From Verrucomicrobiota bacterium (lineage in GTDB: Bacteria; Verrucomicrobiota; Verrucomicrobiia; Limisphaerales; UBA11358): a DNA stretch of 64,000 nucleotides. The stretch is taken from contig JBEKBA010000003.1 of the NCBI GenBank assembly GCA_050015635.1, positions 73 to 64,072 of the forward strand. The letters run 5' to 3'. The translations under genes were made by a program, and so were the position numbers. Position 1 is the first letter of the stretch; each line of letters opens with the position of its first letter. The notes beneath the pieces were generated by a model. The model ran no database searches. It worked only from the letters and a program-made list of their open reading frames with translations, and was not told the origin of the DNA. This document shows positions 36,844 to 53,714 of the stretch, piece after piece.

Positions 36844-37112
36844 AAGGTTTGATTTGAGGAGCGGTAACTGCAAGGAAAGATTGGTTGGTTGGACGGCAAA
36901 ATGAGCGACGGCAGCACCGCTGCAGCACCACTGCCGCAGGGTTGCAGCGACCCTGCAACGCCCCAAAATCAGATAGTGGGTCAGTATTGAAGGGCAGGGG
37001 ACGTGGCATTAATCTTGCGGTACCTGGCCTCCGGCCATGGACATTTGGGAAGTGGTGGAACGCATCCCTGTCAGGCGGCTGCGCGCTGAAGAACAGCGTC
37101 ATTGACCGCCTT

Positions 37113-37130
37113 AAAATTTCCGGAAATTTT
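37113..37130. promoter_or_regulatory. Perfect 18-nt palindrome AAAATTTCCGGAAATTTT upstream of the dksA-like gene (candidate operator)
   Basis: Read directly. Lies 54 nt upstream of the ATG at 37184. A related inverted pair CCGGAAA-N5-TTTCCGG (37178-37196) spans that ATG. Confidence 0.3.
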
Positions 37131-37183
37131 TGTGGCTTATTTAAGTTCGTTTGTTACATTCCAACGCCCCTGCCGGGCCGGAA

Positions 37184-37828
37184 ATGGTTTTTCCGGATTT
37201 GCGGAGGGCTGATTTGAACAAAAAAAACAATTTTGAACCCGTGACTACGAAGAAAAAAGAAACAAAAAAATCCGCGCCGCGCGGCAAGTCGCCGGCGTCC
37301 GCCACTTCCGCAGCGATCCTGGGCCGGCCGGTGTCGAAAGCCAATGTGACCGCCGTTGACGCGAAGAAAATCAAGGGTGAATGGCAGAAGTATTACAATC
37401 ATCTGCTAGGATTGCGCGAGCAGTTGCTGCACCAGATGAACGGGCTGGCGAAGGAATCCGCGCAGGAATTGCCGGGATACAGCCTGCACATGGCGGATTC
37501 AGGGACGGATAATTTTGACCGCGATTTTGCGTTGAGCCTGCTCTCGGCGGATCAGGACGCGGTCTATGAAATCGAGGAAGCGCTCAAACGCATCGAGAGA
37601 AAAACCTACGGAGTTTGTGAATTGACCGGCAAAAACATTCCACGCGCGCGGCTCGAAGCGATTCCGTGGGCGCGGTTCACGGTCGAGGCGCAGGGGCAAT
37701 TGGAACGCGATGGCGCGTTGCGTCAGCGCCGGATTGGCGCTTTGGGCACGGTGGATTCCGTCGGTGTCACGGAAGCTGAAACCGACGAGGACGAGCCGGA
37801 AGAAAAGCCGGCGAAGGAAAAGGAGTAA
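37184..37828 (+). CDS. DksA/TraR-family protein with degenerate (Cys-poor) zinc finger and long basic N-terminal extension
   Basis: C-terminal YGVCELTGKNIPRARLEAIPWARFTVEAQ aligns to the DksA C4 finger, but only the first Cys is retained (C,T,T,A). Acidic tail. Start uncertain (TTG 37151 or ATG 37184). Confidence 0.7.
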   Translation: MVFPDLRRADLNKKNNFEPVTTKKKETKKSAPRGKSPASATSAAILGRPVSKANVTAVDAKKIKGEWQKYYNHLLGLREQLLHQMNGLAKESAQELPGYSLHMADSGTDNFDRDFALSLLSADQDAVYEIEEALKRIERKTYGVCELTGKNIPRARLEAIPWARFTVEAQGQLERDGALRQRRIGALGTVDSVGVTEAETDEDEPEEKPAKEKE

Positions 37829-37831
37829 TTT

Positions 37832-37999
37832 ATGGCACGGGAAATCATCACCCTTGAATGCAGCGAAGCGCGCAAAGAAGGCAAAACACCTTCACGCTAC
37901 ACGACCACCCGCAATAAAAAGTTAAAGCCGGATAAACTGGAAATCAAAAAATTCAATCCGTTTCTGCGCCGCCACACCCTGCACAAGGAGGTCAAGTAA
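37832..37999 (+). CDS. rpmG: 50S ribosomal protein L33 (Cys-less, C- form; not in ORF track, <60 aa)
   Basis: Reads [56 protein letters not shown]33 core is Y.TT.NKK....KLE.KKF.P..R.HT.HKE.K. The CxxC pairs are absent. Confidence 0.9.
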
Positions 38000-38001
38000 T
38001 T

Positions 38002-38256
38002 ATGCCCCGCAAGACGAACACCGAAAAAGACCGGCGCGGTTCGCGCCGGACGACGGAAAACCGCACCCCCCGCCCGAAGCCTAAAATTGACTTCACCGAG
38101 GACGCGCTCGATTTCAAAAACACCAATCTGCTCCGGCAATACGTGACCGACCAGGGCCGCATCCTGCCGCGCAAATACACGGGCATGCCCGCGCATTACC
38201 AGCGGCGGCTGACCCGCGCGATCAAACGCGCGCGGCAGATGTTGCTGATGAAATAA
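38002..38256 (+). CDS. rpsR: 30S ribosomal protein S18
   Basis: 84 aa. S18 core is DFKN..LL..Y....GRILPR..TG.....QR.L..AIKRAR...L. Starts 2 nt after rpmG. Confidence 0.9.
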   Translation: MPRKTNTEKDRRGSRRTTENRTPRPKPKIDFTEDALDFKNTNLLRQYVTDQGRILPRKYTGMPAHYQRRLTRAIKRARQMLLMK

Positions 38257-38311
38257 TGGAATCCGGCCGCCCGATTGCCTTGTGATTGAGCGGCTTTTTT
38301 GTGAGCATGAG

Positions 38312-38328
38312 TTGCAAACAGTTTGCAA
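38312..38328. promoter_or_regulatory. Palindrome TTGCAAAC-A-GTTTGCAA upstream of the fur-family gene (candidate operator)
   Basis: Perfect 8-1-8 inverted repeat, 47 nt upstream of the GTG start at 38375. Confidence 0.3.
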
Positions 38329-38374
38329 TGGCCGGCTTGCTTTTTGGAATTGCCGGTGAGATTTTTGAACGGCA

Positions 38375-38827
38375 GTGAAACCGCACGCACATTCGCACAA
38401 GCGACAGGAATTATCCGCGCTGACAAATCGTTTGCGCGGGCAATCGCGTAAAATCACCGGGCCGCGCGCGGCGATTCTGGAAATTTTGCGCGCGCATCCG
38501 CATCCGCTCACGAACCGGGAAATTTTCGCCACGCTGCCGAAAGGGGATTGCGATCTGGCAACGATTTACCGCTCGATGCATCTGCTGGAAAAAATGGGCA
38601 TGGTGAAACGGTTTGATTTCGGCGATGGCGCGGCGCGGTTTGAGCTGGTCGGTGAAGACGACGACGGCCATCACCACCATCTGGTCTGCACACACTGCTC
38701 GGAAGTCGTTGAGATTGGAGAATGTTTTCCCAGGAAAATCGAGCAAGGCATCGCCGCCCGAAACGGCTTCAAAGCCGTGACCCACAAGCTTGAATTTTTT
38801 GGAATCTGCCCGGACTGTCAGCGGTGA
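38375..38827 (+). CDS. Fur-family metalloregulator (Zur-like by context)
   Basis: 150 aa with a GTG start. Winged-helix region R.AIL..L; H-rich site (DDDGHHHHLVC); two CxxC pairs (CTHC, CPDC). Confidence 0.85.
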   Translation: MKPHAHSHKRQELSALTNRLRGQSRKITGPRAAILEILRAHPHPLTNREIFATLPKGDCDLATIYRSMHLLEKMGMVKRFDFGDGAARFELVGEDDDGHHHHLVCTHCSEVVEIGECFPRKIEQGIAARNGFKAVTHKLEFFGICPDCQR

Positions 38828-38895
38828 ATTTTGCAGCGAACCAGTTTTTAATTAACCAAACTGGCTCTTTTTGGACAGACTATGAAAAACCAGCC

Positions 38896-39060
38896 TTACG
38901 CCAATTCTTCGGCCATCCAGTCTCCGAGGTGCAAGTATTCCTTGATTTTCCGGCGCTCGTAGCGATGTTTGAGCGCCTTTTTTGGTTGATGTTCAATTTT
39001 GCGAAACGGATATTTCGGATTACGAACCGCTTCGCCGATGGCTTCCAATGTCTTCATCAT
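38896..39060 (-). CDS. Small basic protein (hypothetical)
   Basis: 54 aa from MMKTLEAIGEAV..., convergent with the fur-family gene. No recognised family. Confidence 0.3.
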   Translation of the reverse strand: MMKTLEAIGEAVRNPKYPFRKIEHQPKKALKHRYERRKIKEYLHLGDWMAEELA

Positions 39061-39185
39061 AACTCGATTCCTTTCCCCTAAATTTCGCAGCGTAAACGAT
39101 GCCAACCGCCGCAAATTTATTTAAAATCTTTTATCCAAACTTCAGAAATAAGACGCGCCCGCGCGCCCGTTCGTTCAAAAGATTT

Positions 39186-40085
39186 TCACGCGAAACAAAA
39201 CGCACCCGAACGCCACTCCTTATCACTTTTTGCCGAAGCCAGTTTCAAGCCCGATTTTTCGAACGCCGTCTGCACGTGTGAAAATTCCGATCTTAAAATT
39301 CCCGCCAATACGAGGGTTCCGCCACGCCGCAACTGTTTTGCAATTCGTCTCCGTTCCGCGACCAGCAAGCCGGACATCAGATTTGCGCAGATTAAATCGT
39401 ATTGCCGGGGCGCGGGCAGCGGAAGTTTTGCCACGTCGCCACGCGATATCTTAATCCGGTTCAAAAGGCCGTTCACGCGGGCGTTGGCGCGCGCGATGCG
39501 GACCGCTTTGGGATCGGAATCCAGCGCGTGAACCGGTCGGCAGCCAAGTTTCGCCGCCGCGATTGCCAGAATTCCCGAACCCGTGCCGAGGTCCAGAAAC
39601 GATTGTGGTCGCCCACCGATCCGGCGCTTCACGATTTGGCCGAGGCAAAATGAAGTCGTGGGATGCCGGCCGGTGCCAAAACTCAATCCGGGATCCAGCA
39701 CGACGACTGCTTGATTTTTGAGCGGACGACGTTTGATCCAACCGGGTTTGACCAGCAGTTTGTCACCGATCACGAACGATTTAAAATGTCGTTTCCATGA
39801 TTCCGCCCAATCTTCGCGGCGCACTTTTGAAACCGTGATTTTGCCGGAGCCAATTTTCAGTCCGCAATTTTTGATTCGTTTCAGTCCGGCCAGGATTTTT
39901 TCGCGGATTTTGAGCGGCAGAATTTTTTTTCGCGCGGAATAAACGCTGACGGCGCAAGCCCGGGTTTCAAGGTCGAAATAGGACGAGATGGATTGGCCTA
40001 GGGTCGCCCCGAGAAGTTCCGCAACGGCGTCCCCGGCTTCGAGCGTCGTGGCGATGGAAATCCGCCAGAGCGGTTTTTGTTTCAT
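39186..40085 (-). CDS. prmA: Ribosomal protein L11 methyltransferase
   Basis: Starts MKQKPLWRISI. Motifs are DPGLSFGTG.HPTT and the SAM motif DLGTGSGILAIAAAKLG. The ATG overlaps the upstream stop (ATGA). Confidence 0.85.
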   Translation of the reverse strand: MKQKPLWRISIATTLEAGDAVAELLGATLGQSISSYFDLETRACAVSVYSARKKILPLKIREKILAGLKRIKNCGLKIGSGKITVSKVRREDWAESWKRHFKSFVIGDKLLVKPGWIKRRPLKNQAVVVLDPGLSFGTGRHPTTSFCLGQIVKRRIGGRPQSFLDLGTGSGILAIAAAKLGCRPVHALDSDPKAVRIARANARVNGLLNRIKISRGDVAKLPLPAPRQYDLICANLMSGLLVAERRRIAKQLRRGGTLVLAGILRSEFSHVQTAFEKSGLKLASAKSDKEWRSGAFCFA

Positions 40086-40741
40086 GCAACCCGATCGCGC
40101 CACGGCGTAAAGTTGAGCAATTCAATTTCATTCAAGTGCGGGTGCAGTGCGATCTGGGTGACGCTGGTATATTCAATTTCGAATGCGGCGGTTTTCGGCA
40201 GCGGCACATCGAGCAGAATCGCGAGCATCATGCGGATGACGCCGCCATGACAAAAAATGGCGGCGGTCTTCCCGCGATTTTGGCGGATGATTTTACGCAG
40301 GCAGGGTTCGACGCGCCTGCGGAAGTGAAGGGTGCTTTCGCCGTTTGGCACGACGCCAAGTTCGATTTTGTCGAGCCACTCGTAAGGATGGATGCCGAAC
40401 TTTTCGCGCACGGCATCCCAGCCGAATCCCGTCCAATCTCCGAAATCAATTTCGCGGAGTTCGGGAAAAATAACCGGCCTGGCCGCGCTCTTTTTGAGGG
40501 TCGGCGCGAGGGTTTGCTGCACCCGTTTCATCGGGCTGGCGTAGATGGCGTCGAATTTTTTGTCGCGAAGAAATTTTTCGAGTGTTTTGGCCTGCCGATG
40601 ACCGCGTTTGGAGAGGTTCATGTCAATGTTCCCGCCGAAAGCGCCTTGATAGCGCGGCTCAACTTCGGCGTGGCGGATGAGCAGCAGGCGGGTGGGCTGC
40701 GATGGCTTGATTTTTTGCCGGGGGCGTTTGGAAGAGGACAT
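40082..40741 (-). CDS. Histidine phosphatase family (phosphoglycerate mutase-like) protein
   Basis: 219 aa from MSSSKRPRQK. Catalytic RHAE motif (LLLIRHAEV) and a downstream H (FCHGGVIR). Confidence 0.8.
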   Translation of the reverse strand: MSSSKRPRQKIKPSQPTRLLLIRHAEVEPRYQGAFGGNIDMNLSKRGHRQAKTLEKFLRDKKFDAIYASPMKRVQQTLAPTLKKSAARPVIFPELREIDFGDWTGFGWDAVREKFGIHPYEWLDKIELGVVPNGESTLHFRRRVEPCLRKIIRQNRGKTAAIFCHGGVIRMMLAILLDVPLPKTAAFEIEYTSVTQIALHPHLNEIELLNFTPWRDRVA

Positions 40742-40748
40742 GGTGAAC

Positions 40749-41492
40749 TCAGGCCAGAGCTTTTTCCTGCGCGGCCAATAATTGGCGGATGCCCGACTTG
40801 CCGAGCGCAAGCAAACCGGCAAGTTGAGATTCCGTGAACGTTGCCTCCTCGCCGCTGCCTTGAAGTTCAATGAATTCGCCGGCGGAATTCATCACCAGAT
40901 TCAGGTCCACCGTCGCGGCCACGTCTTCGGTGTAACACAAATCCAGCAGCGGCCGGCCGTTGACGATGCCGACGCTCGCGGCGGCGACGGCCTGCAAAAC
41001 GGGATTCTCCGGCAATTTCCTTTCGGACAGCAATTTTTTTACCGCGAGCGACAAGGCGACAAATGCCCCCGTGATGGCTGCGGTGCGCGTGCCGCCGTCC
41101 GCCTGCAACACGTCGCAATCAATACAGATCGTGCGCGCGCCGATTTTTTCGAGATCAATCGCCGCGCGCATGGCGCGACCGATCAGGCGCTGGATTTCGG
41201 ACGAGCGCCCGTCAAGCCTGCCTTTGGTAATGTCGCGCGGTTTGCGTTGCAGCGTGGAATACGGAAGCATCGAATACTCGGCGGTGAGCCAGCCGCCGGT
41301 GACTTTTTGTTCTTTCATCCAGCGCGGCACGTTTTCCTCAATGGTCACGCCGCAGATGACGCGCGTTTGTCCCCATTCGATGAGTGTGGAACCGGCGGCG
41401 TAGGGCGCGATGTGATTTTGAAAGCAGATGGGCCGCAATTGGTCCACGGCGCGGGCATCGGCGCGCGGCGCGTTGGGATTTTCTGTTTGCAC
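40749..41492 (-). CDS. rph: Ribonuclease PH
   Basis: Collinear with E. coli RNase PH from RADARAVDQLRP (GS.L.E.G.T.V.C; WLTAEY.MLP; GR..EIQRLI.RA.R; DCDVLQADGGTRTA.ITGA). The GTG at 41492 best matches known N-termini. The track start at 41612 adds 40 unaligned aa. Confidence 0.85.
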   Translation of the reverse strand: MQTENPNAPRADARAVDQLRPICFQNHIAPYAAGSTLIEWGQTRVICGVTIEENVPRWMKEQKVTGGWLTAEYSMLPYSTLQRKPRDITKGRLDGRSSEIQRLIGRAMRAAIDLEKIGARTICIDCDVLQADGGTRTAAITGAFVALSLAVKKLLSERKLPENPVLQAVAAASVGIVNGRPLLDLCYTEDVAATVDLNLVMNSAGEFIELQGSGEEATFTESQLAGLLALGKSGIRQLLAAQEKALA

Positions 41493-41742
41493 GCGGCCAG
41501 CGTAAAGTTTCGGGTCAGGCAGGTCAAAATGGTTTTTTGCCGCAAATAAAATGGACGGCGTGAAATGAATGGAATAAATCTGCCGCCGAAGGCCCATATT
41601 GAATCCAGACACGTCTGGTTCTTCCTCGAAAAATTGTCTGGAATAAACCGCCCGTTCCTGTCTCTAATCCCCGAAGCCTTGTTGTGCGGCAGGCGGAACG
41701 TTTGCCGCAAGGAACGCAAACAAAAACAACAAAATAAAAATT

Positions 41743-42006
41743 ATGACCAGAACACAAAGAACACTCCTTGTCAGCGCGGCTATCACCGGCTTGCTGACGG
41801 GCGTCTGTGCGAAAACTTACGCGCAGAGCACCAACGCGCCGGGCACCAACGCGCCGAGCGGCGACACGGGCAAACACGACTGCCAGGGCAAAAACACCTG
41901 CAAAGGCCTGGGCGGTTGCAAGGGCAGCGACAATGGCTGCACAGGCAAGAACAGTTGCAGCGGCAAGGGCGGCTGCAATACCAAGGGCAGTTGCAAATCC
42001 GTGTAA
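41743..42006 (+). CDS. Cys-rich, Sec-signal-bearing RiPP precursor (bufferin BufA2-like)
   Basis: 87 aa. Signal peptide is MTRTQRTLLVSAAITGLLTGVCAKTYA. The core has 7 Cys in about 44 aa, with two C-x-G-K-N-x-C-x-G-x-G-G-C units. Sits immediately upstream of a DUF692 gene. Confidence 0.7.
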   Translation: MTRTQRTLLVSAAITGLLTGVCAKTYAQSTNAPGTNAPSGDTGKHDCQGKNTCKGLGGCKGSDNGCTGKNSCSGKGGCNTKGSCKSV

Positions 42007-42072
42007 TGTCCGGTTTCATTTTGGAGAGCGAAGTTGTGGAAATTTCGCTCTCCAATTTTTATTTGGAGAGCC

Positions 42073-42927
42073 ATGCCCGCCAATCCATTCAATAACTTTA
42101 CCGATTACGGCATCGGCATCGGCCTGCGCGTGCCGCATTACGATCATATTCTTTCCCGGAAGCCGGCCGTGGGATGGTTTGAGATTATCTCGGAAAATTT
42201 CATGTGCGATGGCGGGCGACCCCTGAAGGTGCTTGATCAAATCCTTGAACAATATCGCGTGGTGCAGCACGGCGTCTCAATGTATTTCGGTTCGTCGGAA
42301 AAATTGAATCGCGAGCATCTGAAAAAAATCAAGCGGCTCGTCAAACGTACGAACACGCCGTGGCTGTCCGACCATCTTTGCTGGGGCAGCGTGGACGGAC
42401 GCTACACGCACGATCTGCTGCCGATGCCCTACACCTTCGCCGCCGCGCGCGTCACCGCGCAACGCATCCGCGAGGCGCGCGATTTTCTCGAAGTTCCCAT
42501 CGCCGTCGAAAACGTAAGCAGCTACGCGGAATTCCACGTTTCGGAAATGACCGAATGGGAATTTCTCAACGAAGTGGTCGAGCGCGCCGACTGCGGAATT
42601 TTGCTGGACGTGAACAACATTTACGTCTCCTCGCGCAACCACGGTTTCAACCCGTTCGATTACGTGAACGGCATTCCGGCGCATCGCGTCGCGCAGATTC
42701 ACATCGCCGGCCACAGCAAATTCCAGAAATATATTCTGGACACGCACGACCATCCGGTCATTGACCCGGTCTGGAAACTTTACGAACGGGCGATCCAACG
42801 CACCGGCAAAACCGCGACGCTTTTGGAATGGGACGACCGTATTCCCTCGTTCGACGAAGTCCACGATGAAGCGTTAAAAGCCGGAAAATTCCTGAAACGT
42901 CTTGAAAACGAACTTGTCAGCGCGTAA
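42073..42927 (+). CDS. DUF692 / MbnB-like multinuclear non-haem iron oxidative (MNIO) enzyme
   Basis: 284 aa from MPANPFNN. DUF692 pattern runs throughout (GIGLR..H...I......WFE.ISEN; HGVS; LSDHLCW; LLP.P; ENVS.Y; LLDVNN.YVS..N; IHIAGH; DTHD; LLEWD..IP). Confidence 0.85.
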   Translation: MPANPFNNFTDYGIGIGLRVPHYDHILSRKPAVGWFEIISENFMCDGGRPLKVLDQILEQYRVVQHGVSMYFGSSEKLNREHLKKIKRLVKRTNTPWLSDHLCWGSVDGRYTHDLLPMPYTFAAARVTAQRIREARDFLEVPIAVENVSSYAEFHVSEMTEWEFLNEVVERADCGILLDVNNIYVSSRNHGFNPFDYVNGIPAHRVAQIHIAGHSKFQKYILDTHDHPVIDPVWKLYERAIQRTGKTATLLEWDDRIPSFDEVHDEALKAGKFLKRLENELVSA

Positions 42928-43840
42928 CCCGCAAACCCAGCGCGAATTTCACGAGTTGCAACGGCTCATGGCCCGCGCGGTCATGCGCCCGCTCGGTCGC
43001 GGCGACGCGATGCAACGCAAATGGATTGACGGTCGTCCGACAAAAAAAATCGCGGAAAGTTTCATCAAACCAAACGATCGGTTGAATTCCTTCGAGCGGC
43101 TCGAGATTTACAATCGTCAATACTGGTTTCGTATCCGCGATTGTTTTTACGACGATTATCCCGGCCTGCGCGCCATTCTCGGCGACAAAAAATTCGAGCG
43201 GCTCGCCGACAAATATCTCACGCATTGCCCGTCGCAATCCTTCACGCTGCGGAATCTGGGGTCGCGACTGGTGAAATTTTTGGAGGCTGAACCAAAGCTG
43301 GCTGCGCCACATCAGGAACTCGCGCTCGACCTGGCGCGGCTTGAATGGGCGCACACCGAAGCCTTCGACAACGAAGCTAAACCCCCGTTGCAAGCCAACG
43401 ATTTGTTGGACGCCGACCCGGCCAAAATTCGTTTGCAATTGCAGCCGCACTTGACGTTGTTGACACTCGAAAATGAAGTGGATGATTTTCTAATTGAGTT
43501 GAAAAAAAAATCAGGTTTGCGCAGCGAAGCAAGCAACGCGATGGAACAAAATCATCGCCACAAAAAAACGAAAATCGCGCGGGGACTGAAACGCGGGAAA
43601 AATTTTCTCGTGGTTCACCGTTATAATGACGGTGTTTATTACAAGCGGCTTGAACCGGGTCAATTTCTGGTTTTATCCGCGCTGCAACGCGGCGCGACGC
43701 TGGAAAAAGGCTGCGCGACCCTGATTCAATTAAAATCCTTCAAGGGCGATTTGAGCGAAAAGATCACAAAATGGTTTTCAAGCTGGGCCGCACTCGGCTG
43801 GTTTTGCGGTCTGGAAAATCCGGCGAAAGGAAAATCATGA
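42902..43840 (+). CDS. DUF2063-family partner protein (BufC/HvfC-like)
   Basis: 312 aa. Overlaps the DUF692 gene by 26 nt. N-terminal LQRLMARAVM...Y.RQYWFR pattern. Conserved position in DUF692 operons. Confidence 0.7.
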   Translation: MKTNLSARNPQTQREFHELQRLMARAVMRPLGRGDAMQRKWIDGRPTKKIAESFIKPNDRLNSFERLEIYNRQYWFRIRDCFYDDYPGLRAILGDKKFERLADKYLTHCPSQSFTLRNLGSRLVKFLEAEPKLAAPHQELALDLARLEWAHTEAFDNEAKPPLQANDLLDADPAKIRLQLQPHLTLLTLENEVDDFLIELKKKSGLRSEASNAMEQNHRHKKTKIARGLKRGKNFLVVHRYNDGVYYKRLEPGQFLVLSALQRGATLEKGCATLIQLKSFKGDLSEKITKWFSSWAALGWFCGLENPAKGKS

Positions 43841-44310
43841 AAAGATTGGGAAAAGGTCATCATTTTTTTGTTAAGGCGGCGAATTTTCTGCAGTCGCCAT
43901 TCCTGCTGGCCATCCGGCTTTACTGGGGCTGGCAATTTTTTGAAACGGGAAAAGGCAAGCTGGAAAATATACAAAACGTCGTCCAATTTTTTCAGACGCT
44001 TAACATTCCCATGCCCGAAGTGAACGCGTGGATCGTCGCCATCATGGAATGCTTCGGCGGACTGCTGCTGATGGCCGGACTCGGCTCGCGGCTGGTCGCG
44101 TTTGCGCTCGCGTTCGACATGGTCATCGCCTACATCACCGCCGATTCGGAGGCGTTGAAGTCCATCTTCACCGATTCGGACAAATTTGTGCAGGCCGCCC
44201 CGTTTCCGTTTCTACTGATGACGTTGACGGTTTTGGTTTTTGGGGCCGGCGTCTTCTCGCTCGACTGGCTGATGGGAAGAATATTTTTCCGCAAAACCGG
44301 AAATGCCTGA
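43837..44310 (+). CDS. DoxX-family membrane protein
   Basis: 157 aa from MKRLGKGHHF. LAIRLYWGWQF..TG..K and four hydrophobic helices. ATGA overlap with the upstream gene. Confidence 0.8.
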   Translation: MKRLGKGHHFFVKAANFLQSPFLLAIRLYWGWQFFETGKGKLENIQNVVQFFQTLNIPMPEVNAWIVAIMECFGGLLLMAGLGSRLVAFALAFDMVIAYITADSEALKSIFTDSDKFVQAAPFPFLLMTLTVLVFGAGVFSLDWLMGRIFFRKTGNA

Positions 44311-44365
44311 TGGCTGTTTTTTCGTCGGGCGCGAGCATTTTCGGATGCCCCTTGCGGGGCGGCCA

Positions 44366-44422
44366 ATGCGCCTGACGGCGCGGGGATGTGGGATAGGATC
44401 CAGGAAATCGGGAACAAAAAAG
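44366..44422 (-). repeat. REP-like interspersed element, copy interrupted at its end by the IS
   Basis: ATGCGCCTGACGGCGCGGGGATGTGGGATAGGATCCAGGAAATCGGGAACAAAAAAG is the reverse-complement paralogue of 11061-11116. Confidence 0.75.
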
Positions 44423-44451
44423 GGTAACAATATACCTGTCACAACATAGCC
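44423..44451 (+). repeat. Left terminal inverted repeat of the IS1595-family element
   Basis: GGTAACAATATACCTGTCACAACATAGCC. Confidence 0.85.
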
Positions 44452-44485
44452 ATTGGAGGTCGTTTGCCAGTATGTGACCTGATTT

Positions 44486-44659
44486 TCAACGGTGCTTTTT
44501 GGCTTCCCGTTTTTTTAAGTTGCTGGCCTGAAACGCAGCCAACTGTCTGTCTGATTCCGATTTGCTGACTGACAGCACTTTCTTGATGACTCTTTTGAAG
44601 CCGCCAAGCGAAATCAGCGGAACATCGTCGGCTGATTGATGTTTTGTTTTATTGTTCAC
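44486..44659 (-). CDS. Possible fourth passenger ORF, small basic protein (not in ORF track)
   Basis: 57 codons from a GTG that overlaps the upstream stop as GTGA. Reads VNNKTKHQSADDVPLISLGGFKRVIKKVLSVSKSESDRQLAAFQASNLKKREAKKHR. No in-frame ATG. Confidence 0.3.
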   Translation of the reverse strand: MNNKTKHQSADDVPLISLGGFKRVIKKVLSVSKSESDRQLAAFQASNLKKREAKKHR

Positions 44660-45189
44660 TTACTAAATATCTTAAACAGGCGTTTGAAAAATCCAATTCT
44701 ATCTCTTTGTAAGATTTTAACTGGTTCTCCGTAGGCTGGAAAGTTTCCATTAAGACACTCAATCGTATAATGTTCGATGACTTGATACGGGCCAAGTTTG
44801 CTTCTCCAATTTCCATTTACCATTTGTCTAGCGGCGTGCGTTGGCATATCGGGAGTCGTGGCCGGAAAAGCTCCAACGGGATCATAATAAATAACTACCT
44901 TTTCAAGATTTGGTTCGGAGGTAGAAAACTTGTTTTTTTGCTCGGTATATCTGAATAATCCAAACGCCTGAACAAACCCATCTACTGTTTCTTCTCGTTT
45001 TTGTAGTGGCCAATAATACTGTCCGTAAGGGTCTGGCCACCACCATCTAGTTTTATCGCCAGCGGCGTAAGCGATACAATTATATCTTTTAGTTGGCCAG
45101 ATAGTGACAGCGTGATATAAATCTCTTGTCAAAGATGGAAAACAGCCTTCAAGGTCGCGGGCTAGATACCATTTAATTCGGATAGCCAT
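44656..45189 (-). CDS. Passenger protein C: hypothetical, Trp-rich, with Cys...His pattern suggestive of a papain-like fold
   Basis: 177 aa. Motifs YNCIAYAAGD...WWWPDPYGQYYWP and, later, PTHAARQMVNGNWRSKLG. Overlaps protein B by 17 nt. Confidence 0.6.
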   Translation of the reverse strand: MAIRIKWYLARDLEGCFPSLTRDLYHAVTIWPTKRYNCIAYAAGDKTRWWWPDPYGQYYWPLQKREETVDGFVQAFGLFRYTEQKNKFSTSEPNLEKVVIYYDPVGAFPATTPDMPTHAARQMVNGNWRSKLGPYQVIEHYTIECLNGNFPAYGEPVKILQRDRIGFFKRLFKIFSK

Positions 45190-45832
45190 TCTCTTTTCCC
45201 CATTTCAACCAAGCTTCCCTCATCTTTTTTAGATTTCCAGCGTCCTCTGGCTTAATTGGAGAAATTTTTGCGATTGCTCTTAAGGCGGTGAACCAGTGGT
45301 TTGTTTCTTTTTTCAAATCACGATGAATAAATTTAATTGCCGGTCGCCCCATTCCAATAATATCCAAATAGGCAGGGTGCATTACAATTGCAGAGATTGA
45401 AGATTGAAATTGAGTTTCTTTTTTCCATCTTTTTGACAATAGATCAAATTCTGATTCTAATTGCGAAACGTCAACGGAAACAGTTGGGGCAACTATGTCG
45501 GTCGGAGAAATTACACTCGTCAGAGGGAAACTTCCATAATCGAACGTAATAGCATATCCATTTGTTTTCAATTCACATAAATCCCACTTTTTTTGCAATT
45601 CCTGCCAGAGAGATGTTAAATCACAAACACTCTGCTCTGACTTGCGGAAAAGAACATTATTTGGATTCATATCCAAGTGCAGCACGTCAACTTTTGGCGC
45701 TGGCACTTGTTTTTTAGCCGAAAACTGTGGATGATTAAACCAATTCAAAACGGCGCGACGTGGCTTCAGGGCAGGCGTATCATCATACTCCATCCATGAT
45801 TCTCTTTCAGATTTAGCTGCTAGTGTCTGCAT
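45173..45832 (-). CDS. Passenger protein B: hypothetical
   Basis: 219 aa with a helical C-terminal region (NHWFTALRAIAKISPIKPEDAGNLKKMREAWLKWGKENGY). Starts 10 nt after the protein A stop. Confidence 0.6.
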   Translation of the reverse strand: MQTLAAKSERESWMEYDDTPALKPRRAVLNWFNHPQFSAKKQVPAPKVDVLHLDMNPNNVLFRKSEQSVCDLTSLWQELQKKWDLCELKTNGYAITFDYGSFPLTSVISPTDIVAPTVSVDVSQLESEFDLLSKRWKKETQFQSSISAIVMHPAYLDIIGMGRPAIKFIHRDLKKETNHWFTALRAIAKISPIKPEDAGNLKKMREAWLKWGKENGYPN

Positions 45833-45842
45833 GAAAATTTAT

Positions 45843-46520
45843 TTATACTTCGAGATATGGAACGCTTGAGCTTTTTAGTATTGATTCAAGTGCTTTCGTC
45901 TTTTTCTCTGCACGAGCAATCACTTCTTTCAGAGACTTAATATCATCTGTGTCTAAAGCAACGTAAAATTCCTTGTGTTTGCCTGTTCCGCCATCATGGA
46001 ATCCAATTTGTAAATTGTGAATTATCATAGCACCTGACGCCGAATCAGCCGTGCTTGTGAACACTGGCCGTATGTCGGAGAGAACTCTTGCGCGGCAAAA
46101 AGTGTGCTTATGTTCGGTCATCACATCAAATGCTTTCGATGTAACCGCCATTGTTTTTTCAAAGCCGAGCAGCTTTTGGAGGCGGCTGATTAAAATCTCC
46201 TTTTTTCCTGTTGAAAATTCAAAGTCCTTTGATACGGATTCTAAAATTGATTCACCAACGTCGTTTGCTAAATCTTTAGCAGACAATTCCGCCCTCTCTT
46301 TCATCGCATACAAAATGAAAATAACCCTGCAAATCTCTGACAATTCATCAGTCTCAATTGTTTTAACTTTTTCTTTAACATTGCCGATGAATTGCCTGCG
46401 CCTCAAAGTGGGATTCGTCTCGCCAAATGCAGAAATCAAGGAATTGAATTGAGGATCGTCAAGTTCTGAAATCGCTTTTAGAACCGGCAAATCTTCGTCT
46501 GGAATGGTTAATGAAGCCAT
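45843..46520 (-). CDS. Passenger protein A: hypothetical
   Basis: 225 aa. Helical N-terminal half and a beta-rich C-terminal half (GAMIIHNLQIGFHDGGTGKHKEFYVALD). No recognised family. Confidence 0.6.
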   Translation of the reverse strand: MASLTIPDEDLPVLKAISELDDPQFNSLISAFGETNPTLRRRQFIGNVKEKVKTIETDELSEICRVIFILYAMKERAELSAKDLANDVGESILESVSKDFEFSTGKKEILISRLQKLLGFEKTMAVTSKAFDVMTEHKHTFCRARVLSDIRPVFTSTADSASGAMIIHNLQIGFHDGGTGKHKEFYVALDTDDIKSLKEVIARAEKKTKALESILKSSSVPYLEV

Positions 46521-46636
46521 ATAATTCCTATAAAAGACGCTCGTTTTGTTTCATTTCCATATAAATATAGCCGCAAAAATCAGCCGTCAAACGATTATTT
46601 TTTCTGTTGGCCGCGACGCTGACGGCTATTTGCCAT

Positions 46637-47584
46637 TCAATTTCCATCGGCGTTACCGCCGATTAACTGCTGATATGTCAATCTTCGTCCCGAAATTCCG
46701 CCCAACGCTTTCTGAAATCGTTCGCCGTCATTGTTCTCACGATTGTTGAATCGAAACGCCTGCTCATCAAGATAACGAAACAGGTGAAACGGCTCAACGC
46801 TGACGTATGTTCCCTTAAAGCAACGCTTCAGCAAGCACCAAAAATTCTCCAATCCGTTCGTGTGGACGTTGCCGCGCACATATTCCTTTGCGTGGTCAAT
46901 CGCTTCGTGAACGTAATCCTTGCTCAATCCGTAATATGACGGCAACGCATCGGTGAACACCTGCGAACCGGCGGCGACGTGCTGGCGAATTTCACCTTGA
47001 ACCGTGCTGCGTCTGGCGTTCGGAACGTGCTTCAATTTAATTTTGCCCTTGCGTTCCAAAAGTCCCATGACAATCGCTTTGCCGACGCCACCAGTGCCAC
47101 GACCGCGTTTTCGTTTTTTGTCGGTGTGCATATTGCGAACTTTTCCGCCGATATAAGTTTCATCCGCTTCAATTTCGCCGGACAATTTTTCAATCGTGCC
47201 GGACTGCAAAGCCAAACGGATTCTTTGTTCTAAAAACCACGCGCTCTTTTGCGTGATGCCCAATGCGCGGTGCAATTCGTGAGAACTGATTCCGTTTTTT
47301 GCGCTGGCGACAAGCCACATTCCAAGCAGCCACTTGTCCAAACCGATAGGGCTATCTTCCATGACAGTTCCGACCTTGAACGAAAACTGGCGACGGTTCG
47401 GGCAATCTTCGCACGTCCAAACTCTGCGCTTGGCGGTGAATGACACATGGACAGAACCGCAGCGCGGACATTTCACGCCGTCCGGCCAGCGCATTGCAAC
47501 GGCAAATTTCAGGGCGGTGTCGGCATCGGCAAAATGCGCCGTGGCTTCTTTCAGCGTCTTTGGGAACTCGGTTTTATCTTTCAT
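46637..47584 (-). CDS. IS1595-family (ISXO2-like) transposase
   Basis: 315 aa. N-terminal zinc ribbon (CPRCGS...CEDC), an HTH, and a DDE region with EADETYIGGK. Confidence 0.9.
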   Translation of the reverse strand: MKDKTEFPKTLKEATAHFADADTALKFAVAMRWPDGVKCPRCGSVHVSFTAKRRVWTCEDCPNRRQFSFKVGTVMEDSPIGLDKWLLGMWLVASAKNGISSHELHRALGITQKSAWFLEQRIRLALQSGTIEKLSGEIEADETYIGGKVRNMHTDKKRKRGRGTGGVGKAIVMGLLERKGKIKLKHVPNARRSTVQGEIRQHVAAGSQVFTDALPSYYGLSKDYVHEAIDHAKEYVRGNVHTNGLENFWCLLKRCFKGTYVSVEPFHLFRYLDEQAFRFNNRENNDGERFQKALGGISGRRLTYQQLIGGNADGN

Positions 47585-47603
47585 GCGCTCAATATCGCAG
47601 AAA

Positions 47604-47632
47604 GTCTATGTTGTGTCAAGTATATTATTACC
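47604..47632 (-). repeat. Right terminal inverted repeat of the IS1595-family element
   Basis: The reverse complement reads GGTAATAATATACTTGACACAACATAGAC. Confidence 0.85.
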
Positions 47633-47665
47633 CAAAAAAGAGTGGGAGCGCAAGCGGTCCTTGTG

Positions 47666-47695
47666 GACGGGCAACGTGACGCTGCACCCGATTAC
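47666..47695 (-). repeat. REP-like hairpin (GTAATCGGGTGCAGCGTCACGTTGCCCGTC on minus strand)
   Basis: Same family as 13008-13031 and 13532-13555. Confidence 0.7.
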
Positions 47696-47994
47696 GGACG
47701 CCGCAGTCGCCGTCGCGCGTTCCGCTATGGCGGCCGGGGCGCGGCGTCCCTACCGTCCAAATTGGCCAATTTCAGCTTGTTGTTTTTGCGGCTTAGTTGA
47801 GTCATTTGTGACTATCGCGTGATGCCCTGCAAGTCGTTTTTTTTGGTTGATTTTGTTGGTGTTTTTCGTTGTTAATAAGTCGTTGGGAATTATTGTTGCG
47901 TCGCATGAACGGATATATTATTAACCATTCAACTGCTGGAATGGCAGGCTTGAATAAATTTTAAAAAGCGAATCGAACAAACCAAAGAGACAAA

Positions 47995-48747
47995 ATGAAA
48001 CTGAAAAACAAAATCATCACTGTAGGCGCCGCGCTGGCATTTTTAACTTTTGCGACTTGCGGGCTGCAGGCGCAAATAACAAACCTGGTTACAATCACCG
48101 CGACAGCCTGGGAGCAAGGCACCAACTACAACATCACCAATATCGTTATCAAGCTTGGTACCACTAATGTCACTGTTTACACCAAGTATGTGAAACCACC
48201 CCAAGAATCTCTTGACACGAAAGATATACTCAAAGAGCTGGCTAAGGATGAAGACGCGGCGGGACTTTGGACCTCCAACAACTTTCCCTCCGGCGCGCAA
48301 CTGGCGGTTATAGACGGTGGTGATATTACCAACAAATTTGTGGTGTTGGGCAAGACGAACAACCTTCTCGTTGTTGTTACCAATATTGTAAGTCTCGCAA
48401 AAGGAACCAACGACATTGACGTTGTCAGCGGCGAAGAGAATGACACGACCGGTCTTTACTCCCCTTCCAAGACCGACATGCACCTTTTGGATTTCATTTT
48501 TGACGATACCGCAATCACCAACGCTGGAAGCGGCGACATTAAGTTCGATCTGCTCGGTTTGGATACGCAAAAGGTAACCGACACCAAACCCGTGGCGTCG
48601 GGAGCACATGAGGGAGACTATACGGAGACCGTTTCAACCTCGGTGCCTTCAGCCGTTGGCGAAGGGACTGATAATGGCATCGATGTTGTCCTGACCGGCA
48701 GCATTACCGGAACGGGATCAGTAAAGCTTGTATACGTTGCTCCGTAG
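47995..48747 (+). CDS. Secreted hypothetical protein
   Basis: 250 aa with a signal peptide (ITVGAALAFLTFATCGLQA). Thr/Asn/Val-rich and beta-rich. AT-richer than the backbone. Confidence 0.6.
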   Translation: MKLKNKIITVGAALAFLTFATCGLQAQITNLVTITATAWEQGTNYNITNIVIKLGTTNVTVYTKYVKPPQESLDTKDILKELAKDEDAAGLWTSNNFPSGAQLAVIDGGDITNKFVVLGKTNNLLVVVTNIVSLAKGTNDIDVVSGEENDTTGLYSPSKTDMHLLDFIFDDTAITNAGSGDIKFDLLGLDTQKVTDTKPVASGAHEGDYTETVSTSVPSAVGEGTDNGIDVVLTGSITGTGSVKLVYVAP

Positions 48748-48918
48748 AGCAATTAAGTCCGTCGAGTAATATCGCCGGAATCTGTCATCTGACGTGCGTT
48801 TGGTTCGACACATTATTTTTCTGTGTCGAACCAAATTTTTTGGGGCAGCCGACCATCTTGACCTGCCGACTCTTGGCGAATTGAAACGCACACAATAAAC
48901 AGCGGATTGCGGCATAAT

Positions 48919-48950
48919 GCAGTCTTGCTGCACAAGGTCTGCAAGACTGC
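48919..48950. repeat. GC-rich hairpin (10-bp stem GCAGTCTTGC/GCAAGACTGC, 12-nt loop)
   Basis: Read directly. Lies between convergent genes and has no U-tract. Confidence 0.5.
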
Positions 48951-49010
48951 TGCAGCAGTGCTGCCGCGCCCAAATTGCGGCGGGAAGGGCAAAAGTTTTC
49001 ATGGCCCGGA

Positions 49011-50375
49011 TCAGGCAGCCGTTTTATGGGTGAATTGATGTTGCCTGCTGATTTTGGCGAGTCGCTTTTCCCAATCGCTCCTGTGTGCGAGCGGGTCGGC
49101 GTCTGTTCCCCACAATTTTTTCACCATCTCGCGTTGCGGCACAAACGGGCATTTGGACTTCGGATTCCTGTGCGCGTCGTCGAGTTGACGCAAGGCCAAT
49201 TGTGCGCCGGTCATCAACGCCGGTTTTTCCGGGCGGACAAATTGCGCATTCAATTTGTGCGCCGCTTCATCCAGCGCGCCCCAGCGTTCGGCATCGGTTG
49301 TTCCCCATAGTGTCGGTTGGGTGTCCAGCCGCGACAAATTTCCAAACCCGATGCGGATTTGCCGCACGGATTTAAAAGCGCGGCTCATCAAATCACGGAA
49401 AATCTCTTCCAGCACGGAATTGATGATTGAGTTTTGGAATTGCGCGTGTTGAAAACGATGGCTGCCGCCGGCTTCGGTGAAATCGTTGAAACGAATCGTC
49501 AAACTCAATTCACGCGGTTGCAACTGTTCGCGCCGCAACTGGCCGACCAGCCGGGTGGCTTCGCTCAAGGTGAAGGTCAGCGCCGCTTCGTAGTCCGGTT
49601 CGTCGTAGGGCAGGGTGGTGTTGCTCGAAATGCTGGCACGGTCCTTGACTTCAAGCAAAAGCGGCTCATGCCATTTGCCATTTGAGAAAAGCCAAAGTTG
49701 TTGTCCCCAGATTCCAAATTTCTGTTTGAGCAACATTGACGGCAGATTTGCCACGTCGCCAAATGTGGTTGCGCCCAAAGCGGCCAATGCCCGTTCGCGA
49801 TTTTTGGCAATGCCGGAAAGCTCGCGCACGGAACGATCTTTCAAAAATTCCTTTTCCTGTCCGGCGGGAATTTCGATGAAGCCGGGCTTGGCCGCATCGG
49901 TCGCCAATTTTGCCAGACGCGATGAACTTGCCAAGCCGCCGGACACCGGCAATCCAACTTCCCTGCGGATGCGTTCGCCAATCTGCCTCATGTAATCCAT
50001 CGGGGTCGTGTGCTGCCAGACGTGTTTGTCCATTGTGGTGAAATCCAGAAAACCTTCGTCAATGGAGATCGGCACGAGCGTGGGCGAGTATTCTTCGAGG
50101 ATGCGAAACATCTCCTGCGACAATCGCCGGTATTCGTCATAGTGCGGACGGCACAGAACACCTTTGGGGCAAAGCCGTTTCGCCTCGAAACACGCCATGC
50201 CGGTTTTGACGCCAAATTTTTTAGCGAGCCGGTTGGCGGCAATCACGATGCCGTCGCCGCGCCGTCCGCCGCCCACCCAAACGGCTCGCGCCTGCAATTT
50301 GGAATTCAACGCCACTTCGCAACTGGCGAAGAAGCTGTCACCGTCAACGTGGAGGATTCGGTTGTTGTTGCTCAT
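49011..50375 (-). CDS. dinB: Y-family DNA polymerase (Pol IV-like)
   Basis: 454 aa from MSNNNRILHVDGDSFFASCE. SIDEGFLD motif. Little-finger region plus a C-terminal extension. Confidence 0.85.
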   Translation of the reverse strand: MSNNNRILHVDGDSFFASCEVALNSKLQARAVWVGGGRRGDGIVIAANRLAKKFGVKTGMACFEAKRLCPKGVLCRPHYDEYRRLSQEMFRILEEYSPTLVPISIDEGFLDFTTMDKHVWQHTTPMDYMRQIGERIRREVGLPVSGGLASSSRLAKLATDAAKPGFIEIPAGQEKEFLKDRSVRELSGIAKNRERALAALGATTFGDVANLPSMLLKQKFGIWGQQLWLFSNGKWHEPLLLEVKDRASISSNTTLPYDEPDYEAALTFTLSEATRLVGQLRREQLQPRELSLTIRFNDFTEAGGSHRFQHAQFQNSIINSVLEEIFRDLMSRAFKSVRQIRIGFGNLSRLDTQPTLWGTTDAERWGALDEAAHKLNAQFVRPEKPALMTGAQLALRQLDDAHRNPKSKCPFVPQREMVKKLWGTDADPLAHRSDWEKRLAKISRQHQFTHKTAA

Positions 50376-50510
50376 GCGCGGCAAACAATTTAGCGCGACG
50401 CGGGATTCCGCCAAGAAACAAAGATGAGAAAATTCTCAGCTTCCGCTTTCCCTTTGAGACGAAACAACGCCCGGAGCGGGTTAATTACTGAATCGGATGA
50501 TGGCGGGTGT

Positions 50511-53500: not shown

Positions 53501-53546
53501 TCGCAGTCCCAAGGAAACACCCGGACAGAGGTTTTGATTTAAGCAT
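50511..53546 (-). CDS. Secreted sedolisin (S53) family peptidase with multiple Ig-like repeats
   Basis: About 1011 aa from MLKSKPLSGC (signal peptide). Pro-kumamolisin activation domain (LSPEEFTARFGPTEQDY). Catalytic Ser region GGTSCASQLWAGF. Three or four ~95-aa repeats (SP..G.....GGPF...S.N..LTN....L.WS..NT..WL). C-terminal beta-sandwich domains. Confidence 0.8.
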   Translation of the reverse strand: MLKSKPLSGCFLGTAIILLCGICPVFAADWKILPGHVPPVVSSLTAKGLLPATSRLRLAIGLPLRDPAGLDNFLAQVYDPSSPNFRRFLSPEEFTARFGPTEQDYEAVKNFARTNGLTVTTTYHNRLVLDVTGPAAAVEKAFHITLHIYRHPTEARDFYAPDTEPTVDVALPVVDIQGLSDFSRPHPRLHRMHPAVAAKAIPRTGSAPDGSGDYFGNDFRNAYVPDTTLTGAGQTVGMFEADGYYSNDIAAYATVAGNGRTNIVIQTVLLDGYNGVPTTGADSGNPEVSLDIEMAMSMAPGLSKIIVYEGNPDNFIPNDILNAMLDGSNTVKNLSCSWGWSGGPSTTTGTIFTNMAAMGQSFFTSSGDSDAYTTGANSVNGVDNTSLFNAPCSSPIITQVGGTTLTTGANAAYSSETVWNWGYVSSDAEYLGSSGGISSHYSIPGWQMNVNNMVERGGSASFRNIPDVALTADDVFVDYGNGSSGGFGGTSCASQLWAGFMALVNQQAGANGQSSVGFINPAIYAIAARPDYANCFHDVATGNNTSSSSPDLFYATNGYDLCTGLGTPAGQSLINALAGSGALIVSPLSGSASGVAGGPFSIASGNFVLTNASSSPLTWSLVNTSAWLNISATSGTLAVAAQTNLTCSLTAAAGNLAVGTYTANLTFSNWTSAAALAALFTLQVNQPLVVSPTNGFAASGPIGGAFNVTSQNYLLTNQGDSSLPWSIINTPSWLDASPSSGTLAGGAQSTMTISLTAAANSLASGVYTADVLVTNPTGVAASLPFTISVGQSIVNNGGFETGNFTGWTLNASSKYDFVTTSSSYVHSGSYGSALGQDGSLGYLYQTLTTSPGQNYLLSLWLDNPENSAGATPNQFLVQWNGTTIFNQTNIPFAAWTNLQFIVTATGASTLLKFGFEDTPYYLGLDDISVTQISPPAFETAQQATTPTTAFNLTWSAVAGLVYQVQYNTNLLQTNWINLGSPITATTNTLSVSDTNALISSPSRFYRIVELP

Positions 53547-53714
53547 GTTTTGCGGCCTTTTCCAAAAATTGCCGATCTTAAAAGTGTATTTAGCACGTCG
53601 CATTCCAAAATCCGGCAGCTTATGGCGAAAAGCTACTTGAGAACCAGCCAAAGTCAAATACGTCAAACTACTGATGACAACTTGTGTCAATACCAGGGAC
53701 TGCCCCCTTTGGGA

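Follow-up and report, generated by a model that had tools for sequence, protein, structure and literature searches.

Within a stretch of 64,000 nucleotides from a Verrucomicrobiota bacterium (contig JBEKBA010000003.1 of assembly GCA_050015635.1), hereafter called the window, four open reading frames (ORFs) lie on the same strand at positions 41743-44310. These genes, bufA, bufB, bufC and doxX, are all present as an original prediction made from the DNA letters had described them. The region is very probably a bufferin biosynthetic operon of the BufA2 type, a type also referred to as Buf_6/12Cys or 'Cys-Lys captophorin'. Bufferins and captophorins were defined between 2024 and 2026 (PMC11626156, PMC13097082, PMC12452194). 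Bufferins are probably the largest group of post-translationally modified peptides of ribosomal origin (RiPPs) made by multinuclear non-haem iron-dependent oxidases (MNIOs) and represent a widespread defence against copper stress. The locus is an ordinary but intact, somewhat divergent member of this known and very widespread family, to which it adds nothing categorically new. Its own traits are the clean loss of the sigma/anti-sigma pair of its clade, with a putative extracytoplasmic function (ECF)-type promoter kept, and a seventh cysteine in the precursor core. The features discussed below are the following, L001 to L091 being the labels of the homologous loci of relatives compared with the window.

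41571-41585, plus strand: relic of the lost sigma gene's promoter, of which the -35 element and the first part of the spacer survive (GGAATAAATCTGCCG) and the -10 element is lost
41586-41614, no strand: deletion junction, 29 nt of unrelated filler replacing 1,319 nt of L088
41640-41668, plus strand: candidate ECF-type operon promoter, with -35 GGAATAAA at 41640-41647, a 15-nt spacer and -10 TCTAAT at 41663-41668
41743-42006, plus strand: bufA, 87 aa, precursor, BufA2 being its only profile match
42021-42065, plus strand: intergenic terminator-like hairpin found by a terminator scan, with a 15-bp stem at 42021-42055 followed by the T-tract TTTTTATTT
42073-42927, plus strand: bufB, 284 aa, MNIO (formerly DUF692) iron-dependent oxidase
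42902 (TTG)-43840, plus strand: bufC, 312 aa, DUF2063 partner with a RiPP recognition element (RRE)-like domain (PME-type 1)
43837-44310, plus strand: doxX (bufD/hvfX-like), 157 aa, integral membrane protein

Precursor, enzyme and accessory proteins

Profile searches against Pfam and NCBIfam gave the results that had been predicted for the MNIO, the DUF2063 protein, DoxX and the precursor. The compact arrangement of the four co-directional genes was also well described, since the bufC stop and the doxX start share an ATGA at 43837-40. The 26 nt noted between the DUF692 and DUF2063 genes are correct as an overlap (42902-42927), and this holds only if bufC starts at TTG 42902. From this codon the protein has 312 aa, against 290 aa from ATG 42968. 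In 10 loci, the residues encoded upstream of that ATG in the bufC frame, Q-T-x-x-E-F-x-x-L-Q-[RK]-[LI]-M-A, are kept at the protein level. In three relatives, an ATG lies two codons beyond the counterpart of this TTG, a place taken by ACG in the window, and the Pfam DUF2063 match starts before Met23. The upstream TTG is therefore the likely start.

BufA begins with a predicted Sec-type signal peptide (residues 1-27) composed of the n-region MTRTQR, basic through R3 and R6, a 17-residue hydrophobic core with a hydropathy peak of 2.3 and a predicted cleavage site TYA/QS. The T-Y-A/Q motif is conserved among BufA homologues, no lipobox was found in the signal region, and Cys22 inside the signal peptide is non-conserved. 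The 59-residue core is of low complexity, with 14 Gly, 8 Lys and 7 Cys, the latter at positions 47, 53, 59, 66, 72, 78 and 84. C47-C53-C59 and C66-C72-C78 form the two C-x-G-K-N-x-C-x-G-x-G-G-C units that had been recognised at the outset, and C84 is an extra Cys in the C-terminal tail N-T-K-G-S-C-K-S. The spacing C-x5-C-x5-C-x6-C-x5-C-x5-C is that of the BufA2 or Buf_6/12Cys module. This family owes its name to its six-or-twelve-Cys pattern (PMC11626156; PMC12452194), and the same pattern defines the 'Cys-Lys' precursor group in the captophorin classification (PMC13097082).

The sole NCBIfam match of BufA was Cu_RiPP_BufA2 (E=3e-6), with 27.2 bits for a cut-off of 60, i.e. below the curated model. 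No Pfam match, to DUF2282 or any other family, was obtained even at E up to 10, so that the description of the precursor as BufA2-like rather than DUF2282 holds. In the same way, 29 of 31 BufA homologues match the BufA2 model below its cut-off. Database proteins above this cut-off served in the comparison as a stand-in for the Caulobacter BufA2 sequence. Two of them, the relatives P0064 (62.5 bits) and P0068 (89.6 bits), have the identical Cys module and consist of two or more copies of K-H-x-C-K-G-x-N-x-C-K-G-x-G-G-C-K-x-x-D-N-x-C-x-G-K-N-S-C-K-G-K-G-G-C.

The 63 close homologues of BufA are largely metagenomic, and the named ones all come from Verrucomicrobiota or Verrucomicrobiae metagenome-assembled genomes (MAGs). 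Among them, C47, C53 and C59 are invariant, C72 and C78 are conserved in at least 90%, C66 is found in most and C84 is missing from many. BufA thus has the six conserved Cys, the length of less than 200 aa and the position directly upstream of an MNIO gene that together constitute the operational definition of a bufferin precursor (PMC12452194). A profile search recovered more than 7,600 relatives; those with a source name are labelled 'hypothetical protein', and many fall under the curated BufA2 model. With this number of matches, the compact 6/7-Cys precursors of soil Verrucomicrobiota and Acidobacteriota represent a very large group. From its Cys pattern and profile scores, the window peptide is best described as a compact, divergent member of the Buf_6/12Cys family and not as the curated equivalog. 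Nor is bufA a chance ORF, given its more than 60 close homologues, its place directly before the MNIO gene in all 87 loci examined and its ratio of non-synonymous to synonymous substitution rates (dN/dS) of 0.17-0.26.

Several relatives have two precursor paralogues (L001 at 3141-3407, L002, L009, L007 at 8455-8724, L013, L029, L042, L084 and L086). The extra copy of L001, of 88 aa, lacks the fourth Cys and has the C-terminal one; it is located upstream of the sigma gene and preceded by the -35-like octamer GGAATAAA. In L084, two complete divergent bufABC(D) clusters stand back to back.

BufB was expected to be an MbnB-like MNIO, and the 42073-42927 protein indeed matches Pfam PF05114 (MbnB_TglH_ChrH) with E=4e-107. 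It scores 347.9 bits against NCBIfam MNIO_BufB, above the equivalog cut-off of 310, and lies under the cut-offs of HvfB (253.6 bits for 360), MbnB (42.7 for 325), ApyH and ChrH. Alignment to the Vibrio MbnB (VcMbnB), whose iron ligands have been listed (PMC8888699), showed that all nine ligands are kept: H66 (H55 in VcMbnB), H101 (H91), E146 (E135), D179 (D165), N182 (N168), H210 (H194), D223 (D209), H225 (H211) and E252 (E238). The catalytic Asp, which acts as general base, is also kept as D254 (D240). According to Gadgil et al., enzymes of the Cys-Lys type have Asp and not Phe right after the catalytic Asp and are devoid of the second N-terminal Arg of Lys-Cys enzymes (PMC13097082). BufB has E252-W-D254-D255 and G-L-R19-V20, which match the Cys-Lys determinants, whereas its best solved-structure match, the Haemophilus somnus homologue 3bww (E=4e-49), has E-R-D-F and Y-R-R instead. 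D254-D255 and R19-V20 thus indicate that the enzyme and substrate subtypes agree.

BufC matches Pfam PF09836 (DUF2063) with 56 bits, above the cut-off of 27.2, and NCBIfam HvfC with 44.8 bits, below the cut-off of 142. Its AlphaFold2 model, built from 32 sequences, has a mean predicted local distance difference test (pLDDT) score of 68, with 75-91 in both domain cores. The model comprises a helical N-terminal domain and a C-terminal domain of three strands and three helices, which are separated by a basic, disordered insert (residues 199-228); compared with the usual 250-260 aa, BufC has about 40 aa more. The only significant matches of the model in the PDB were NGO1945 (3dee, E=1e-6) and TglI (8hi7_A, 8hci_A), with a probability of 1.00. 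Both proteins are listed as DUF2063-type MNIO partners, and 3dee is the PME-type 1 reference (PMC12452194). By its modelled fold, BufC is a PME-type 1 partner (DUF2063 plus an RRE-type domain) encoded after the MNIO gene. Finally, DoxX matches Pfam PF07681 with 72.6 bits and NCBIfam HvfX with 67.6 bits, below the cut-off of 80, and has hydrophobic segments at residues ~62-100 and ~117-145.

The operon is widely distributed. A scan of one genome per GTDB species revealed at least 593 loci with a gene for a BufB relative; they belong to Verrucomicrobiota, Acidobacteriota, Eremiobacterota and other groups. Among the best 80 of these, which come from MAGs of Verrucomicrobiota, Acidobacteriota, Eremiobacterota and 'Eisenbacteria', BufB is 80-96% identical, while BufC, DoxX and BufA of the same loci (L008-L087) are only ~40-60% identical. 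Between phyla, BufB identity reaches 83-86% vs 44-50% for BufC. A separate horizontal transfer of bufB is not needed to account for this gap, since bufB evolves ~5 times slower than bufC even among close relatives (dN 0.023 vs 0.109). A homologue of the window-type precursor was found directly upstream of bufB in 87 of the 87 loci examined, with bufC next in nearly all of them and doxX in most. The host, which looked to belong to the Planctomycetes-Verrucomicrobia-Chlamydiae (PVC) group, had been regarded as unusual. This view does not hold, as the same operon is present in hundreds of Verrucomicrobiota and Acidobacteriota MAGs, and both the PVC host and the bufA-B-C-doxX architecture are typical.

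Candidate promoter, hairpins and loss of the sigma/anti-sigma pair

The operon is flanked by prmA, a histidine phosphatase gene and rph (minus strand), in synteny with the relatives. By homology, rph starts at GTG 41492, while its entry in the ORF list reached 41612, and the rph-bufA intergenic region corresponds to 41493-41742. In the relatives, the space between rph and bufA is occupied by an ECF sigma gene (~166 aa) and a second gene, of 269-276 aa, and this pair is present in the nearest ones, L088, L089, L091, L006 and L001. The sigma passes the TIGR02937 sigma70-ECF model. Its partner has no Pfam match and a weak generic anti-sigma match; in L088 (where the pair spans 4691-5997) as well as in L001, L004, L006 and L091, its N-terminal domain is cytoplasmic, a single segment spans the membrane, and the periplasmic domain carries the invariant residues H138, D140, E142, H156, C177, C191, H199 and D201. 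The partner is not NrsF and is possibly an anti-sigma factor that senses metal or redox state and serves a Buf2-type cluster. In one Verrucomicrobial clade, an ECF sigma of its own and an anti-sigma-like protein other than NrsF are coupled to a Buf2-type cluster, whereas a published survey found such adjacent regulators only in Buf1 clusters (PMC12452194).

The window has lost this pair. At ~90-91% DNA identity, window 37072-41585 corresponds to L088 155-4674 and window 41615-44313 to L088 5994-8695. The intervening 1,319 nt of L088 (4675-5993), which hold the sigma gene (4691-5191) and the gene of the 269-aa partner (5188-5997), are replaced by the filler at 41586-41614. What remains of the old sigma promoter, its -35 half at 41571-41585, marks the left breakpoint; this region aligns at 87-91% with the stretch that immediately precedes the sigma gene in L001, L006 and L088. 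An exact 24-nt probe from the junction filler gave no match in JGI metagenome contigs. It had already been remarked that no ECF sigma/anti-sigma pair is adjacent to the operon; in agreement, tblastn (E<1e-3) found no ECF sigma homologue in the whole window. The absence had also been called unusual. For Buf2-type clusters in general this is incorrect, because it is their published norm (PMC12452194). Within this clade it is justified: as the nearest relatives do have the pair, its absence in the window is a lineage-specific, derived deletion. With the regulator genes deleted, expression of the operon must depend on a sigma encoded elsewhere, or the loss must be very recent.

Two routes to the deletion were considered and discarded. 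Recombination between two bufA paralogues, as suggested by the second precursor of L001 between rph and the sigma gene, does not fit the closer relatives L088 and L006, which have no such paralogue, nor the breakpoints, one of which falls within the spacer of the sigma promoter and the other where the anti-sigma gene ends. The two GGAATAAA promoter copies were ruled out as sites of a recombination because both survive.

The operon itself has kept a promoter-like motif. GGAATAAA-N15-TCTAAT is located ~75 nt upstream of the bufA ATG; its -35 and -10 are invariant and its spacer variable across the window, L001-L007, L009, L011 and L041. A near-identical motif, GGAATAAA-N15-TCYTAW, abuts the sigma start codon in 8 relatives. 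Such a motif in front of both the sigma gene and the operon would be expected if an ECF sigma autoregulates its own gene and acts on a target promoter. With up to 2 mismatches the motif has a single match in the window, and a shuffled 64-kb sequence contains at least one such match 32% of the time, so that the weight of the argument lies in the conservation across loci. On this basis, 41640-41668 would function as the ECF-type promoter of the buf operon. The motif is kept without an adjacent sigma gene in L007, L011 and L041, and Caulobacter buf2 is controlled in trans by SigF (PMC11626156), which makes it plausible that another sigma factor reads the window promoter in trans.

The GGAAC pentamers first proposed as ECF -35 elements do exist, at ~41694 and ~41711, but they are absent upstream of bufA in the 90%-identical L088. 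They lie in the 5' untranslated region (UTR), downstream of the promoter, the conserved ECF-like motif being ~50 nt further upstream, and they were rejected as -35 elements. A 5'-UTR hairpin at 41686-41710 (GCGGCAGGCGG...TGCCGC; z = -2.55 vs shuffles) holds one GGAAC, with the second just downstream; its sequence is not conserved in L088. A scan of the whole window with Rfam at gathering thresholds gave no match, and thus no known riboswitch or leader in this 5' UTR.

Another hairpin, the terminator-like one between bufA and bufB, is better conserved. Across nine close loci, 7 of the 13 pairs of the consensus helix show compensatory changes, and a strong GC-rich hairpin of unrelated sequence was seen at the same position in most of 45 loci inspected, more distant ones included. 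It could act as a partial terminator or attenuator, or as a stabiliser of the 3' end of the bufA transcript, that raises precursor over enzyme transcript, and in this way it probably sets the ratio between the two.

Despite the deletion, the four genes show the marks of selection. Computed pairwise against L088 and L091, dN/dS is in the same low range for bufA as given above, and amounts to 0.05-0.07 for bufB, 0.17-0.25 for bufC and 0.13-0.24 for doxX. With L091 as outgroup, 24 lineage-specific amino-acid changes were counted over the four buf genes in the window vs 29 in L088; the flanking housekeeping genes gave 30 vs 37, a similar ratio. The four genes are under purifying selection, with no sign of relaxed constraint in the window lineage. 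Consequently, either the pair was lost very recently or the promoter is read by a different sigma factor. As a separate matter, the constraint on BufB (dN/dS ~0.05) is unusually strong for an enzyme of an accessory pathway.

A genotype in which the pair is lost and the operon is yet under selection offers a useful comparison for studies on the induction of such operons. The window could even be a natural regulatory knock-out, in which an ECF-only promoter is kept and a 1.3-kb deletion took away both the dedicated ECF sigma and an undescribed non-NrsF anti-sigma-like sensor, while the seventh Cys might also denote a hepta-Cys subtype with a chemistry of its own; we put this forward tentatively and consider it more doubtful than probable. 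If the sigma/sensor pair is the metal sensor of the clade, the Buf2-type bufferins of soil Verrucomicrobiota would be under the control of a new sensor family, and comparing the deletion genotype with intact relatives would reveal the inducing signal of these peptides.

Known systems, proposed mechanism and alternative readings

One of the closest known systems is buf2 of Caulobacter vibrioides (BufA2/BufB2/BufC2, CCNA_02999-03001), the founding Buf_6/12Cys bufferin (PMC11626156, PMC12452194). In both systems the MNIO gene is preceded by that of a precursor with a six-Cys module and a signal peptide of the Sec type, predicted in the case of the window; the enzyme passes the BufB model and its partner combines DUF2063 with an RRE. 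Both are also devoid of adjacent sigma/anti-sigma genes and have an ECF-type promoter, a candidate one in the window and one read in trans by SigF in Caulobacter. On the contrary, doxX is present in the window and not in buf2, the window core is shorter (~60 aa), with a seventh Cys and almost no non-repeat sequence, the window precursor, BufC and DoxX remain under the NCBIfam cut-offs, and the host is a Verrucomicrobiota. Moreover, the window lacks the sigma pair through a recent deletion and not as an ancestral state.

Other MNIO systems were also compared. Haemophilus influenzae hvfABCX (oxazolin) and the Fontimonas fontiphorin are 'Lys-Cys' captophorins with EGKCG motifs (PMC11252979, PMC13097082). 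They share with the window the same four protein types (a Cys-repeat precursor, with a signal peptide that is predicted in the window, an MNIO, a DUF2063 partner and DoxX), and 3bww, the best structure match of BufB, comes from the hvf-type enzyme group; the copper-binding 5-thiooxazole chemistry would be common to them as well. They differ in that the window precursor is free of EGKCG and that the window enzyme falls well under the HvfB cut-off and has R-V and D-D in place of the R-R and D-F of Lys-Cys enzymes. The Buf1 or gig systems, characterised by a DUF2282 precursor and SigF/NrsF, have the core of MNIO, DUF2063 protein and DoxX in common with the window, and the window's close relatives likewise carry ECF sigma and anti-sigma genes beside the cluster; however, the window precursor is not a DUF2282 protein and the anti-sigma-like protein of the relatives is not NrsF. 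As for methanobactin MbnABC, its MNIO fold, iron ligands and catalytic Asp are shared by BufB, and a Cys would be similarly oxidised into a copper ligand. The window enzyme nevertheless scores far below the MbnB cut-off, its partner is a DUF2063 protein in place of MbnC, and its precursor has a predicted Sec signal and not a leader peptide.

From the homologous systems of Caulobacter (buf2), Haemophilus (hvf) and Fontimonas (fon), we infer the chemistry, the identity of the modified Cys, the metal and the use of the promoter. Transcription would start ~7 nt downstream of the ECF-sigma-type promoter at 41640-41668, and the hairpin after bufA would leave the precursor transcript in excess over the enzyme transcript. 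In the cytoplasm, the RRE-like domain of BufC would bind the precursor and present it to the iron centre of BufB, which with O2 would oxidise internal Cys by four electrons each (-4 Da) into 5-thiooxazoles. By analogy with Buf2, where the inner four are modified, these Cys would most likely be C53, C59, C66 and C72, and the outer C47 and C78 would form a disulfide. The peptide would then be exported by Sec and is predicted to be cleaved by signal peptidase I after Ala27, and the mature product of ~60 residues would buffer excess periplasmic copper. DoxX would be a conserved membrane accessory, dispensable for modification as in Caulobacter, where thiooxazoles, copper binding, the requirement for BufB and BufC, the dispensability of DoxX and the control of buf2 by SigF in trans were reported (PMC11626156).

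Several observations weigh against the assignment to a functional Buf2-type operon. The core has seven Cys and not six, and this odd count misfits the Buf2 scheme of one disulfide and four thiooxazoles. An AlphaFold2 model of the precursor, from an alignment of 31 sequences, has a mean pLDDT of 48.8 and is uninformative. The precursor, BufC and DoxX all remain under their NCBIfam equivalog cut-offs (27.2/60, 44.8/142 and 67.6/80 bits, respectively), and from these scores they appear to be divergent members. In addition, the operon may be silent, given that its neighbouring sigma has been lost and that the 64-kb window has no ECF sigma.

The last point leads to the alternative that the operon is a decaying regulatory orphan, its ECF-only promoter being unread after the deletion and its genes intact since the deletion is recent. 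The 29-nt filler at the place where L088, L089, L091, L006 and L001 carry the pair is consistent with this view, as are the lack of an ECF sigma homologue in the window and a sigma-70 promoter scan that detected none upstream of bufA. Both flanks of the operon are also remodelled, a 4.7-kb segment with an IS1595 element beginning 4 nt after the doxX stop. Decay is nevertheless difficult to reconcile with four intact ORFs and with window-specific amino-acid changes that are no commoner than in the sigma-bearing sister lineage. For BufB, 3 such changes were found vs ~80 under neutrality, an estimate of our own for the whole branch that takes dS as ~0.12 and non-synonymous sites as ~650. Furthermore, L007, L011 and L041 have the same promoter motif without an adjacent sigma, indicating that control in trans occurs in the clade, as for Caulobacter buf2 (PMC11626156). 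We therefore consider a decaying orphan rather unlikely.

Slightly less probable still is a modification or function unlike that of Buf2, such as five or more thiooxazoles including C84, oxazolone/thioamide pairs, or the handling of Zn, Hg or Au, which would make the window clade a distinct captophorin subtype. This is suggested by the seventh Cys of the clade in a conserved C-terminal extension NT-K-G-S-C-K-S, by C-Q, C-T, C-S and C-N at several Cys where the family has C-K, and by the precursor score under the BufA2 cut-off. MerC-bufferin fusions show that some members handle other metals (PMC12452194), and a Zur-like cluster lies 3-5 kb upstream of the operon. However, BufB is an above-threshold equivalog that is 80-96% identical over loci with plain 6-Cys precursors, which argues for the same chemistry, C84 is missing from many close homologues, and related products have been reassigned throughout to 5-thiooxazoles (PMC13097082). 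Finally, that the small ORF is untranslated or an unmodified Cys-rich periplasmic (metallothionein-like) protein, the MNIO having another substrate, is highly improbable: the ORF has no Pfam family and its core is of low complexity, but it lies directly upstream of the MNIO gene at every locus examined, is under purifying selection, has six invariant or nearly invariant Cys and BufA2 as its sole profile match, and is accompanied by an enzyme with the residue reported to contact the substrate Lys after Cys (PMC13097082). The Buf2-type bufferin operon is thus the reading retained here.

The surrounding region

Downstream of the operon, 4.7 kb at 44314-49009, directly after the doxX stop, replace 267 nt of L088. 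This segment contains an IS1595-family element at 44422-47633, bounded by 33-nt inverted repeats (44422-44454 and 47601-47633) that are 85% complementary. Its transposase gene (46637-47584) is on the minus strand, and so are four passenger ORFs, one of which (44656-45189) encodes a DUF7689 protein, the three others (44486-44659, 45173-45832 and 45843-46520) having no family match. A 250-aa ORF at 47995-48747 has no family match either. Further on, the gene order at 49010-56163 is rearranged with respect to L088; genes for a Y-family polymerase (IMS), a pro-kumamolisin-like protein (1059 aa) and a 479-aa protein are retained, and the GDSL lipase segment of L088 is missing. The DHHA1 gene (55219-56163), which abuts doxX in more distant relatives, is 11 kb away from it in the window.

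Upstream, at 37151-38827, a cluster resembles a Zur-type zinc-sparing cluster, an assignment that draws on its sequences and on the precomputed Pfam labels of relatives. Its members appear to be a DksA/TraR-like protein and an L33, each with only one Cys, an S18 devoid of Cys, and a Fur-family regulator that has CxxC motifs and a stretch rich in His. The cluster is syntenic in L006 and L088.

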